Of a stretch of DNA of 64,000 nt, positions 31 to 20,790 are shown one piece after another. The notes beneath the pieces were generated by a model that saw only the letters and a list, made by a program, of their open reading frames with translations, made no database searches and was not told the DNA's origin. A program made the position numbers and the translations under genes. Numbering within the stretch: the stretch's first letter is position 1; each line of letters opens with the position of its first letter. The stretch covers positions 87,109,165 to 87,173,164 of the forward strand of contig JASCQW010000072.1 of NCBI GenBank assembly GCA_030264375.1, read 5' to 3'. Origin of the DNA: Carcharhinus longimanus. Lineage: Eukaryota.

Positions 31-1133
31 ACAAGAATTCTCTGTACTTTCACCCACAAGACATTCGAAGTAGTTGAGATTTACTCAAACATAAATGAAT
101 AGGTTTTTTTGTGGCATTCCACTCACTTATCACCTCTTGAGAAATTTATGGAATCAGATTATAAAATAAAACTATTATGATGGGTGCAAGATATTGAGAC
201 GCTTTACAGCAGATTCAATGTCAATTCATAGTCAGTATAAGCAATTGCAAACAGCAGTTACCTATGGAGCCCTTTTGACCTCAGTAGATACACAGATTCC
301 CATAGATGGGAAGGTTTTTAAATGAAGGCTCACTGGAAAAAAGTTGTACATTTTTTGCCAAACATTCAGCACGAATGAAATTTGGGCTTTATTTGGTTTT
401 CCAGGATTTACAAATAAAAGTTATCTTTAATGTAACCAGTCATCCATTATTATTTACATGCATAATGTTTTACCGTGTTTAGCTTTTCCCCAGGTGGCAC
501 ATTGCTTTTTACACAAAGAGATCTTTAATTCTTACATTCTTCCCTTTTCCTTATAACAGGTCACTTTTCTCTCACTTGCTGTCACCCTCCATTATACTGA
601 CTGAGGCCAGCAAGCACCCTGCTCCCAGGGTTCTACCAATGCCACACATGGGTCAGCTAAAGGAGCCACAAGAGTAACCCAGGCCAACTTACTCTACATT
701 TTATTTCCCCTTAAAAAGGGAATTCTATGCTTTCACTTGGCAGTTCTCCTCCCTTGAGGCTGAGAACTCACGATGGGAGGAATCACAGGTTAGGGTCTGG
801 TATCTGACCACTCTTTAATTAGTCAATGCATTCTTCTGCATGGCCGTTTGATTTTAGAAGTTTCAAAGCAGGAAGGCATTTTTTTTGTGCTAAACCGAAC
901 TGCACTGTCTGCAATCAAGCATATTCCAAAACCATTATGTAAACCAGTTATACAAAAGCCTAAATTGAAATTACTTCCAAAATAAAAAAAATTACACTTG
1001 AGCAAAATATTTTTACAGTGAACTTAAAGGTCCAATTTAAATAGAGACAAAAATATAGTAGGATTTGTTTACAACTGTAGAAGATGCTGCAACGTCAGAG
1101 ATCAGATACTGTACCGTGAATCGTGTCTGTCAC

Positions 1134-1186
1134 CTGGAAACCAGAGTGCTCAAGGCACGATCGCAAAGGCACGATCGCATGGGAGC
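1134..1186 (-). other. Candidate 53-nt cassette (poison) exon in CHKA intron 2
   Basis: Acceptor GTTCTCTGCTGCAG and weak donor CAG|GTGACA. Alternative donor ACG|GTACAG at 1115/1114. Embedded in a CpG-rich non-repeat block. Confidence 0.4.
1152..1179. repeat. Perfect 14-bp tandem duplication (AAGGCACGATCGCA x2)
   Basis: Read directly at 1152-1165 and 1166-1179. Confidence 0.95.
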
Positions 1187-4100
1187 CTGCAGCAGAGAAC
1201 ATATGCAAGTACAGCCAAGGTGGTATAGAACCCCCACAACATACGCAACTCCACACATCAGACATTACGGCAAAGACGTCACAGATTGAGATCCGGTTTC
1301 TTTCAAAGATAATTTTAAATGATATCATTTTACAAGATTTCTTAAAAATTATCAATAAACCAACCAGTCTAATTTGCCTAGTCAGATTTCAATTCTTGAG
1401 GGATGGCCTATCACATTAGATGGGATTAATTTGGTCATACTTGCAAGTCCAAATGGCTTTTTGTTGACAGATTAACCAAACCCAAGTTGGTTTAAAAATA
1501 CAGTACTAACAGCTGAGCTGGGTATAATTCTGGACATCATGAAGTTTATTTGAAAAACATCAAATTTATAACAACATTTACAATATTATGCAAATAATTG
1601 CTGCCTTGTTGTAGTACCATTCTTGTTTATATTTTTTGCGAAGCAGATTTAATTTAATTTTTCCAAGTACTTTTTCTAACTTGAAAAACAGAATTCTACT
1701 AGATACTGCAGTTGATTTGAATAGTGGAACACATGGTACAAAGCTAAAAGAGATGTGGCAACAGCAAAAGATTTACTGAATCAACAAAGCTTCTCCATTG
1801 TGCTTCAGTCTTTTAGCTCATTATCCAAACAGTAATTTACACATCTTCCATTTTTCTATCTAAAGGTTTTGTTCAGCAACAAAGTTACATATTTGGACAC
1901 GGAACCTCTCAAGCCACTACAACTTGGGCATTGACCAGGTGACATTATATGATGGCAAACTAAAGATGAAACAAATTTATGATTTTATTATGTTCCATAA
2001 GTTTGTAGTAGTTAAAGATCTATAACGAATTGAATTTGGCAAGCTATTTTAACTGCTGGCCATCAACAGTAGGCTGGATTTACTTACCAGTGCCTTTAAA
2101 GTTGTAACTATACTTCATATTTTAGTTCACTTGGCCAATTAAATGCATTCTAGAAATTTATTATTCCTGAACCCACAAATATAATTAGGTTTCAAACCTG
2201 TGCTTGAATTTGAAACATTTGTTATCACAATCAACCTAAATCCTTTGCACGGATTATGCAACTCAGAAGTAAAAGTTGATCACGTGATTTCAGATCATAT
2301 GACCATCACATGCTTTTAGTCTTGGCTTGCCAAATTTTAACCCTTTGGCTTGCCCAATTTTCTCAAACATATTTCTACAGGCACCAGGCTCCCTGAGATA
2401 CATCTTTGCCCAAATGGCCATTCTCTCGTGTGTGAAATTTAGCCATGAGTGTCAGCTGGCTATTAAGTGCATTGCAACTTAACAGTTGAGATGGCTCAGT
2501 CATCACCGGATGTTGAAATTCAATTTCCAACTAAAAGCTGTGGTCAGGAACAGGAACCATTGAGGTCTAGTCCCCAACCTGAAATCAGCTAACAATGTAT
2601 AGATTTAAGATTAAATGTTATTTTCTGCTTTGCATAGCTTGCTTTTCACTGGATAAACTTGCTTAGCCTTTAGGTCTCACTTGTTTTATCAAATGTAATA
2701 TTATTTACTTGTACAGAATTATACAGTTAAAATAAAATTGCCAGTTGAGATCTACTGGAAACAAATTTATCTCATGACCTCAGGAATGACATAACTCACT
2801 CACCCTTTGGGAATGTTGATTAAGTCTCAGCACAGCTCTTCCCCAATCAGAAATCCTCTGCAAGTGCTCAACAAAAAAATGACTTTTTCATCCTAAACAA
2901 AGACTGTAAGCACTGACAGCCTGCACAAAAATTCTACAACTATCCCCATTTTAGATTCCAGCAATTAAATAAAAAGGTAAAATTGATCATGACCACTGTG
3001 TTTGCTACATACCAGCACTAGGATTATATTTTTAAAAAGTATTACATTGCCTGACAAATTAAAATCTTATAAAGGGAGTTAGCTACACACTTCTCCATGT
3101 CTCTCAACAACATAAAATTGTTACCAAATTTTATGTTTCAAGGTAACTTGGAAGAAGACAATCTGTGCAGAAATATTTTATTCCTCATACAAAATTATAA
3201 AATACTCCTTCAGTGAAATCAGAAACTTTGACCTCAATCCACTGTACAGCAGGAGGGGTAGTTCTATACAAACTATTTGCTTCCAAGTTTAAAGCATTAA
3301 ACAGAGGAACAAGAAGTTGTGGAGAGACACTGACAAGTTGTACAAATATATGCAACATTTGTGATTATGGGGCAACTCAGTAGGATGTATTTACTATTTA
3401 TTTATTTTGAGCCATAACATCAACTCAACCAGGCACAGCATACAATAGAACTGCTGTTCATCTTTCATACTGGGAGGTCATATATTTCAATACCAACTTG
3501 TACTGTAGCATATACACAAAGTAAAAACCAAGATATATGCCTATGATTTTTCACTAATCCATTGTTTTGTTTTGGTTATTAATCTTGCTATAATATTCAT
3601 TCAATTATGATTATCACTTTTTTCAACATTTATGTTACTGGCGGTATTGGAACTTTAAGTATTATTCAAATCATGTACACAGCAAATTAAATATTTTTGT
3701 TCAAACATGGTGGTTAGAAAATAAATAAGCAGCCAGAATTGAAATTCTACACAGTCAACTATGTTCCTTTGACAATAAAAACAGCTCTATTTGCTCTAGT
3801 TCAGTTTTGAAGATTAACTTCCCATTATAAACACGCAATATGTATAAGATATTCAATTTAAATAATAAAACTGAAATCTTGTATTGAAAGTTTAATGGCA
3901 TGTGCAAGTTCAGGTGCATTTGAGTCATGCAGTCAAGGATGATTCCAGGTTTAATCTCACTCTCTGTCAAGTGAGTTAACTTAATCCTGAAATGACAACA
4001 GCGGCACATGGGAATGGGGTCATAATTGAAAGAGGCAAAAAAATTCAACCAAGGAATCTGATCTTAATCACTACCCAAAAATCATTTTGGAAAACGTGCA

Positions 4101-14004: not shown

Positions 14005-14178
<174 letters not shown>

Positions 14179-14779: not shown

Positions 14780-15420
14780 TTTGACAGAATAGACCCAGGA
14801 TAGTCCATCTTTCCTCTTACATTATTCCCTTAAAATTATGGAATCAACTATGTCAACCCTTAAAACTGAAAAATTGCGTGCATTATTCCAAATTCAGTGT
14901 CACCAGGACTGAATTTGTCTTTATAAAATTTTTCTTTATAAAGTCACCTCAGGATTTATACCCCCTGCAATGCATTCCAAAATTTTACCAGCTTCTTTAG
15001 AAAACATTGCCTGGGAGCATTGTGGTGATCCAGCAATCATTTGCAATCTATTTTAATACATTTCCATCTGTCTCATGATCTACTTTTTAGGATAGTGTCA
15101 AATGCCTTTTGAAACCCATGTAGATAACAACTTTCTTATCCTCTTTCTTATCCAACAAGTCCATCATCTTCTCATAGAGATGCAATGAGCCAGCCAATGC
15201 CCACCCACTCCTAAAACCACGTTCACCCCTTGATTAGCTCATACCCCTCAAGGTACTCTCGTATCATCCCTCGTGACATTTTTCCAACAGTGTAATAAAG
15301 CTAACAATTTGATGGTTCATCCCTTGCTACTTCTGAACTGTGACAATTGGCCTGTGAGAATGGAGCTCTTGAAAAGGTCCGTAAGAAGAACAGCAATTGT
15401 TGGAGCCAATTCCTTTGGAA
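14780..15420 (-). mobile_element. Highly decayed CR1-like LINE fragment
   Basis: The reverse strand shows FQKAFD and LEY.AQF-like segments. Confidence 0.5.
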
Positions 15421-19520: not shown

Positions 19521-20006
19521 AGAATAATGCTGGACCAAATTCTGCTGGAGTCAAAAGATCCGCTTTCTTGGGGTAAATCTGCATTCATTCTATATATTTC
19601 AAACCACTATACCACATAGAATTTGGACTTTATATTTTTGAAATCCCCCGCCCCCACCGTAGAAACACACACACACTTCCCCATTTGAACACAAGCTAAG
19701 AGATTCCTAGTATTATCGTGGAGCCATCAGATGCCTGAGTGACCATTCTTGGTTTATCTCGTCGTTTTGGTTTTGTTTTCCTCATTGATTTTTCAAACGG
19801 AACTGTCATACAAACTGGGATACCGAAAGAAAATTACTCGCGTGGATTATGCTGCAGATCATTTCGGACCCTCCCCGCGACCCTCGCAGGATGTCGCATC
19901 GCCTCCATTTTCAATCAACACGTTTAATTTCTCCCCCCCCCCCCCCACCCCACCCCCCGTCCCTCAATAGATTCATGGTTACTCCATTTTTTCCAGAAAC
20001 AATTCA

Positions 20007-20294
<288 letters not shown>

Positions 20295-20790
20295 TTATAT
20301 TGACGGGTGGGAAGAAAAAGAATAAAAATTGCAATTATCACTTAAAACGCGGGGTGCGGGCTGGTGGGGCGGGGGAGGAGGAACCTCCCCTTCCTCACGG
20401 TCGGAATGAATCCCCTTCTTTCACTCTTCTTACTCCCAGCAACAAAAAGATTTCCTTTTCCCAAAAAAAAGCTGGAAGACAAAGGGAGGGAAGAGAGAAA
20501 GAGAGGGAGAAAAAAAATCAGTGTCTATTAAAACCACACCTATCTCTGCGGGAGAAGAGGGAAAGAAAATCAATATCTTAAAATTATTTCTTTTGAACTA
20601 TGTCAAAAAATACAATTTTAATATATATATAATAGCGAAAGCAAACGTCGGCTGAGGAATCTACTGATCTTGAAGAGATGAATTTGTCAACGGTTTCTTG
20701 AAGTTGGTAGCTGCAAATAATAATAGTAAATGTTCTTGAAAATTCCCCCCTCGGACACACAAGCCAGCAGTTCCAGGAAGCAGAGCTGTT
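20295..20790 (-). other. Predicted ~500-nt CHKA 5' UTR
   Basis: Lies between the predicted TSS and the ATG. There is no minus-strand ATG from 20295 to 20943. Contains pyrimidine-rich tracts. Confidence 0.55.

Follow-up and report, generated by a model that had tools for sequence, protein, structure and literature searches.

Sequence homology points to a shark counterpart of the rodent Chka alpha3 exon within a CpG-rich intronic element

Introduction

What is a compact, CpG-rich element doing in the second intron of a shark choline kinase alpha gene (CHKA)? The element occupies positions 1088-1290 of a 64,000-nt stretch of Carcharhinus longimanus DNA (contig JASCQW010000072.1), which is referred to here as the window and supplies the coordinates used throughout. 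The original prediction, made from the sequence alone, held that the element wraps a frame-disrupting cassette exon inside an RNA structure that acts as a splicing switch, possibly in response to choline or phosphocholine. As judged by homology of its translated tail, its position and its splice sites, the cassette is the shark ortholog of the mouse and rat Chka alpha3 exon, and hence is already known as an exon. The RNA-structure switch proposed for it is unsupported by the folding predictions presented below.

Results

Host gene and position of the cassette

Translation of exon 1 is 100% identical over 74 aa to CHKA of Mustelus asterias, and later exons show a small number of differences from that protein. 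The exon 1 identity to Mustelus asterias choline kinase alpha indicates that the gene in the window, which lies on the minus strand, is the CHKA of the shark. The exons that frame the element are as follows.

20071..20294, minus strand: CHKA exon 1, coding part (74 codons plus 2 nt), matching Mustelus asterias CHKA
14041..14149, minus strand: CHKA exon 2 (109 nt, phase 0 at its end), the cassette's upstream partner
-1317 to -1261 in window numbering (outside the window), minus strand: alpha2 cassette exon, 57 nt, in-frame

The cassette is located 12.9 kb past exon 2 and 2.4 kb ahead of the alpha2 exon, and the next constitutive CHKA exon after the alpha2 exon is found at window position -24439. 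The placement of exons 1 and 2 confirms the earlier assignment of the host gene and of the intron after exon 2. The location in intron 2 stands with one amendment: the next exon is the 57-nt alpha2 cassette, which lies beyond the window and was invisible to the original prediction.

Splice sites and stop codon

Splice sites were scored with a weight matrix of consensus splice-site frequencies, and the cassette is described by four features.

1187..1188, minus strand: 3' splice site of the cassette, 99.3rd percentile of 2292 intron AGs
1134..1186, minus strand: cassette core, 53 nt, putative rodent alpha3 ortholog by tail homology
1130..1132, minus strand: in-frame stop overlapping the first donor, positioned as in mouse alpha3 and esociform tails
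1115..1133, minus strand: 19 nt added when the second donor is used (72-nt exon), probably the ancestral, used exon end

The donor after 1134 scores 3.5 (97.6th percentile of 2134 intron GTs). The acceptor, both donors and the lengths of 53, 72 and 19 nt were all found as claimed, and the further claim that every splice combination disrupts CHKA is likewise upheld. A premature stop appears in six of six combinations (three cassette forms with two downstream exons), yielding products of 120-184 aa in place of 396-415 aa, and splicing of the 1134 donor to the alpha2 exon makes the stop codon overlap the alpha2 AUG. At least seven exons still lie downstream of the cassette stop. Inclusion would put a stop far upstream of the final splice junction, which is the sequence pattern of a poison exon, that is, of alternative splicing linked to nonsense-mediated decay (NMD).

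Homology to the rodent alpha3 exon

Is the same sequence joined to exon 2 in other vertebrates? Short CHKA proteins were gathered and the residues following exon 2 were inspected; the sample comprised 259 proteins, 229 with the exon-2 end and 102 with a non-canonical tail of at least 6 residues. The best match falls in the element for 14 of the 102 tails, and most of the remaining tails start like intron read-through. The most informative record is P0144 (AAR89357.1), named "choline kinase alpha 3 [Mus musculus]", whose 14-residue tail is identical at 11 of 14 positions to the translation of 1174-1133. This match scores 55, compared with 28 at the best other site of the 38-kb intron, and was equaled in none of 2000 shuffles. 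Of the codon positions in this type of tail that are fixed by the residue, 19 of 22 are identical in the window, where a stop codon comes next, just as it does in mouse. The same 11/14 match is seen in rat P0145, Mus spicilegus P0146 and four unnamed Logan proteins.

More distant records agree with this placement. The tails of Dallia pectoralis P0063 and Logan P0048 match the cassette at 9 of 10 residues, those of P0047, P0056 and Xenotaenia P0245 match it in another frame, and kakapo P0064 and P0214 show a brief match with an earlier stop. Among these tail records, several are Logan proteins without a name, and gene models rather than transcripts may underlie some of the named ones. A 6-residue teleost tail match at -2416 (E 0.15) was set aside as chance. 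The alpha3 tail homology and the exon-2-joined tails in teleost, bird and mammal protein records bear out the poison-exon reading. The cassette shares with alpha3 its position between exon 2 and the alpha2 exon, a homologous tail (at the protein level only), and retained homologous splice sites and stop. On these comparisons the alpha3 exon appears to be ancient, recognizable in sharks, bony fish, birds and mammals.

The length to the first donor is 40, 41 or 53 nt depending on lineage, and the frame and stop position also vary while the sequence can still be aligned. Such variation fits selection on the RNA and not on the peptide, as would be expected of a poison exon. A coding role for the tail was rejected because its frame and stop are not conserved.

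Which donor ends the exon?

Table S2a of PMC13078869 lists a 60-nt mouse cassette of the class NMD_in (chr19:3871002-3871062, mm10) that lies after Chka exon 2 and before the alpha2 exon; two earlier NMD data sets flag it, one of them, per the table columns, a cycloheximide data set. Beyond the alpha2 exon, the same table contains a second mouse Chka NMD cassette, 123 nt long. Judged by the mouse tail, the first-donor position comes after 41 nt, and the remaining 19 nt of the 60-nt exon equal the spacing between the two shark donors. Teleost records can be read in the same way. In P0047 and P0056 the tail closes with four residues and a stop, as would be expected if the exon end were joined to the teleost alpha2 exon with the reading frame shifted by one base; this fit is 1 of 32 possible outcomes, and the window reads equivalently from the 1115 donor. 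P0245 ends in four residues identical to the translation of 1118-1107, which indicates that a goodeid fish shares sequence across the 1115 donor. For the teleost donor spacer, back-translation gives upper bounds only. From the 41 + 19 spacing and the teleost tails we infer that the second donor (1115) is the homologous, ancestral exon end and that the 72-nt form is the counterpart of alpha3.

CpG content, duplication and copy number

The original prediction counted about 11 CpGs. There are 10 within 1088-1290, and 11 are reached only in the best-placed 203-nt window; the enrichment itself is confirmed, as the element has the top count among 1127 N-free 203-nt windows over the CHKA introns (mean 1.7, 99th percentile 6). 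One feature inside the cassette accounts for part of it.

1152..1179, no strand assigned: perfect 14-nt tandem duplication inside the cassette, holding 4 of the 10 CpGs

This duplication lengthens the shark exon relative to the 40-41 nt of other vertebrates. Because four of the ten CpGs stem from it, the CpG count is not independent evidence of structure and was rejected as such.

A search of the 2.68-Gb genome with the element returned one match, the locus itself (a result that, given the tool, is no proof of rarity), and no local repeat overlaps the element, in line with the earlier statement that it resembles no repeat family. A transposon relic was rejected in view of the single copy and the homologs in other vertebrates. 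A metagenome pattern scan gave 99 loci, none of which extends past the seed (best 33.7 bits).

Predicted RNA fold

Does the element fold as proposed? The minimum free energy (MFE) is -66.3 kcal/mol, the shuffle mean is -65.6 kcal/mol (z -0.15), and 80 of 200 shuffles fold as well. Three alternative boundaries give z of -0.26 to -0.75 and no sub-window passes -2; the best, at -1.96, covers the tandem duplication. The expectation of folding better than shuffled controls, whose failure had been set in advance as a refutation, is therefore not borne out over this range (z -0.15 to -0.75). Rfam covariance models find no family at the element, with one chance match elsewhere (E 2.2). Two predicted structures nevertheless deserve description.

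1088..1283, minus strand: predicted long-range stem of three helices (1283-1275 with 1096-1088, 1272-1267 with 1117-1112, 1264-1259 with 1129-1124)
1192..1254, minus strand: predicted hairpin, 1254-1239 with 1206-1192, pair probabilities 0.84-0.97

The nested stem described in the original prediction survives in part. Its three outer helices are present in the MFE structure with pair probabilities of 0.47-0.62, where they would enclose the exon and cover the second donor, but the fourth helix (1253-1249 with 1139-1135) has a probability of 0.00 and costs 4.6 kcal/mol to force. The alternative helix over the acceptor has a probability of at most 0.02 and a forcing cost of 3.7 kcal/mol. The mutually exclusive pairings of the GGAG segment are therefore not predicted, and the switch between the fourth helix and the acceptor pairing was rejected on that ground; two competing folds of similar stability, as expected of a riboswitch-type element, are not seen.

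The segment proposed for the switch is instead occupied by the predicted hairpin, which would pair the polypyrimidine tract and hide the only intervening AG (1250-1249). Opening the cassette acceptor is predicted to cost 12.0 kcal/mol, compared with 4.3-8.5 kcal/mol for nine other acceptors of CHKA; the higher G+C content of the element accounts for part of this difference. The number of long-range pairs is 24 against a shuffle mean of 11.2, a value reached by 25 of 300 shuffles. The arrangement of stem and hairpin in these models is suggestive; it was recognized post hoc and is without statistical support.

Upstream flank and candidate regulators

Two features lie upstream of the acceptor.

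1190..1285, minus strand: UG-rich intronic flank, candidate protein-binding region
1257..1261, minus strand: candidate branch point, yUnAy (branch A 1258), by consensus

The flank contains 18 UG dinucleotides, equaled by none of 1851 intron windows, and a G+U fraction of 0.69, matched by 0.3% of windows; its UGG/GUG count is ordinary (6.9%). Such a UG-rich flank fits protein control of splicing. The yUnAy motif is the only match within 120 nt of the acceptor, and the branch A falls just 5' of the predicted hairpin, in the 5' arm of outer helix 3. As to possible regulators, the available part of PMC8492312 reports that in fasted Lpin1-null mouse liver alpha3 inclusion rises and predominates and full-length CHKA protein falls; ESRP2 and other splicing factors are reduced in this liver, and ESRP2 motifs are predicted around Chka exons. 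CHKA is also named among PUF60-dependent splicing changes, the event being unspecified in the part of PMC13451374 at hand.

Shark and elasmobranch records

Six elasmobranch species have RefSeq isoforms of 303-304 aa whose first codon is the alpha2 AUG. They fit an ORF-closing exon just upstream (ORF, open reading frame), and an alternative first exon would look alike. Elasmobranch isoforms of 400-402 aa were checked for the 6-residue insert that the 19-nt piece would add, and only the alpha2 exon is inserted at their junction.

In a sequencing-run search with 1060-1320, 20 of the 24 runs listed hold the stretch; no RNA run is among the holders listed, which says nothing on expression. Nine studies with eight organism labels (two possible-source studies excluded) contain 78-100% of 23 sampled 31-mers of 1060-1320 at about 99% identity. 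This near-identity is suggestive of constraint on the flanks.

Truncated CHKA proteins of skate type were also noted (P0045, P0192, P0193, P0210 and P0208). Four of them share a 12-residue tail and one has a 31-residue tail; these tails, which follow exon 2, have no match in the shark intron and possibly represent other unproductive exons in rays.

Discussion

How might the cassette act in the shark? We consider it likely that it is the alpha3 ortholog, that inclusion, likely through the second donor at 1115, leads to a stop and NMD, and that the exon serves as a dial on the CHKA level, probably set by proteins on the UG-rich flank. In this model splicing from exon 2 would usually skip the cassette. 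With the cassette in the mRNA, translation would end after 129 residues (stop at codon 130), with at least seven more exons to follow, and by the established rule for premature stops the mRNA would be degraded by NMD. Inclusion in sharks would then be likely to lower or tune the level of choline kinase alpha, with splicing proteins bound to the flank as its probable determinants.

Several observations weigh against this reading. The donor after 1115 is weak (-0.7 on the matrix), and among 2304 exon-like pairs in the intron the 1186/1134 pair comes only 17th, with the alpha2 exon 6th. The cassette tail was not found in any shark or ray protein among the elasmobranch records searched, including in a search aimed at shark tails whose six matches added no new record, and the five truncated proteins of skate type carry other tails. 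The bird matches are short (5 residues, score 31 versus a background of 27), and the tails of P0050, P0051 and P0061 resemble the cassette, but none rises above background. Equating the mouse 60-nt exon with the alpha3 exon draws on position, NMD flag and length, not on its sequence. Finally, the eight organism labels behind the near-identity of 1060-1320 are coded and the comparison has no flanking-intron control, so evolutionary distance is not readable from them.

Among the alternatives, one that is compatible with the alpha3 reading is a structure-gated poison exon of the SF3B3 kind, in which the fold would hide the branch point, second donor and polypyrimidine tract until opened. In SF3B3 a conserved stem-loop conceals the branch sites of a poison exon, a structure that has been validated by SHAPE (selective 2'-hydroxyl acylation analyzed by primer extension) and tested by mutation, according to the part of PMC11162794 available. 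The CHKA cassette resembles it as a poison exon with predicted structure over a candidate branch point. Its outer helices (about 0.6) would cover the donor that is probably used and the only branch-point match, the tract hairpin is confidently predicted, its acceptor is the costliest to open of ten CHKA acceptors, the near-identity in sequencing studies spans the flanks beyond the exon, and CpGs persist in the 5' arms. Unlike SF3B3, the CHKA fold is a single-sequence prediction that does no better than shuffles: neither the overall z, nor the best sub-window over the duplication, nor the long-range pairs stand apart from the controls, and a G+U-rich strand folds well from composition alone. 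Gating by structure is accordingly rated as possible, though doubtful. A metabolite-responsive switch goes further, with choline, phosphocholine or a downstream lipid signal altering inclusion, directly through the RNA or via a sensor protein, as feedback on the first step of the Kennedy pathway. The host gene encodes the pathway-entry enzyme, conservation extends across jawed vertebrates, and unproductive splicing with metabolite feedback has precedents in SAT1 and MAT2A. Fasting alters alpha3 inclusion in a mouse mutant for a lipid enzyme, but the available part of PMC8492312 presents that change as one among widespread splicing errors, put down to lower levels of ESRP2 and other factors; with neither proposed switching helix predicted, such a switch is unlikely.

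Could the sequence instead be kept for another reason? The shark exon might not be spliced at all and be retained for an overlapping role, as an enhancer or in controlling how the alpha2 exon, 2.4 kb downstream, is spliced, which would account for the missing cassette tails in elasmobranch proteins, the weak second donor and a 14-nt duplication tolerated within the exon. Retention of the acceptor, the overlapping stop and the second-donor sequence argues otherwise, NMD targets are under-represented among annotated proteins, and the 303-304-aa isoforms fit an ORF-closing exon upstream (as they would an alternative first exon), so that this account seems improbable. Least credible, in our estimate, is that the functional product is the truncated protein itself, or one re-initiated from the alpha2 AUG, serving perhaps as a dominant-negative subunit. 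It would find support in a mouse PCYT2 splice variant that acts as a repressor (available part of PMC13565840), in the abundance of the alpha3 splice form in some mouse states (PMC8492312, same part) and in the stop that overlaps the alpha2 AUG via the 1134 donor. The tail differs across lineages in frame, length and stop, so the peptide is not conserved, and the mouse exon is flagged NMD-sensitive in Table S2a of PMC13078869.

How does the alpha3 ortholog compare with exons already described? The alpha3 variant is covered in the available part of PMC8492312, which cites Aoyama et al. 2004. The shark cassette and mouse/rat alpha3 share the gene, a position after exon 2 and before the alpha2 exon, homologous sequence, an in-frame stop overlapping the first GT and, by the spacing argument, 19 nt from there to the exon end. 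The shark exon is 12 nt longer owing to its 14-nt tandem duplication, and the NMD data come from mouse only. In the portions of the literature at hand, alpha3 is treated as a mouse variant and described as inactive, and two human-centered reviews give only alpha1 and alpha2. The available part of PMC11632617 reports a human CHKA cryptic poison exon "2b" (chr11:68090979-68091089, 110 nt; phastCons 414) that is included in heart and muscle with a percent spliced in (PSI) of up to 0.35. Compared by description and not by sequence, it resembles the shark cassette in lying in the same numbered intron and in being a conserved poison exon, and has a length of 110 nt.

CHKA is not named in the main text or the searched supplement of PMC11162794, the nine supplementary files of PMC13247117 hold no CHKA match, and the covered part of the PMC8492312 supplement has CHKA in expression rows only. 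No paper on conservation or structure of the alpha3 exon was found in a search whose coverage stopped short of subscription papers and most supplements. What appears new is not the exon but its conservation to sharks and teleosts, which we did not find in print.

Exon X of SAT1 and the retained intron and hairpins of MAT2A are instances of unproductive splicing in metabolic enzyme genes with demonstrated metabolite feedback. CHKA resembles them as a metabolic enzyme gene with unproductive splicing; the feedback is known for SAT1 and MAT2A. An exon, stop and donor recognizable from sharks to mammals, across a jawed-vertebrate ancestry of about 450 million years, argue for a selected control point of the entry enzyme of phosphatidylcholine synthesis. 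A bolder and rather implausible extension is a pan-vertebrate feedback switch, in which a conserved fold hiding the branch point, tract and donor would be opened by plentiful choline or phosphocholine, directly or via a sensor, to lower CHKA. Such a switch, if true, would give choline a counterpart of SAT1 and MAT2A control and would offer a ready target for antisense on a cancer-relevant enzyme. The depth of conservation makes the choline-feedback hypothesis worth testing: does alpha3 inclusion track choline supply?

Other features of the locus and related genes

A CpG island at 19640-20553 extends over CHKA exon 1 into the beginning of intron 1, and a 15-nt tandem repeat of 2.1 copies is found at 14912-14942 in intron 1. 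A paralog that appears to be of choline kinase beta type is located at C130:31673636-31713365. Its intron 2 is only about 3 kb, no alpha2-like exon and no homolog of the CHKA element were found in it, and the 80-kb paralog region on C130 shows no similarity to 900-1500 (best E 1.7). Three further genes matching PF01633, at C72:93.49-93.62 Mb, C130:5.93-5.95 Mb and C142:9.36-9.40 Mb, are probably ethanolamine kinases. Intron 1 of the paralog of choline kinase beta type contains a CpG cluster near 31695600.

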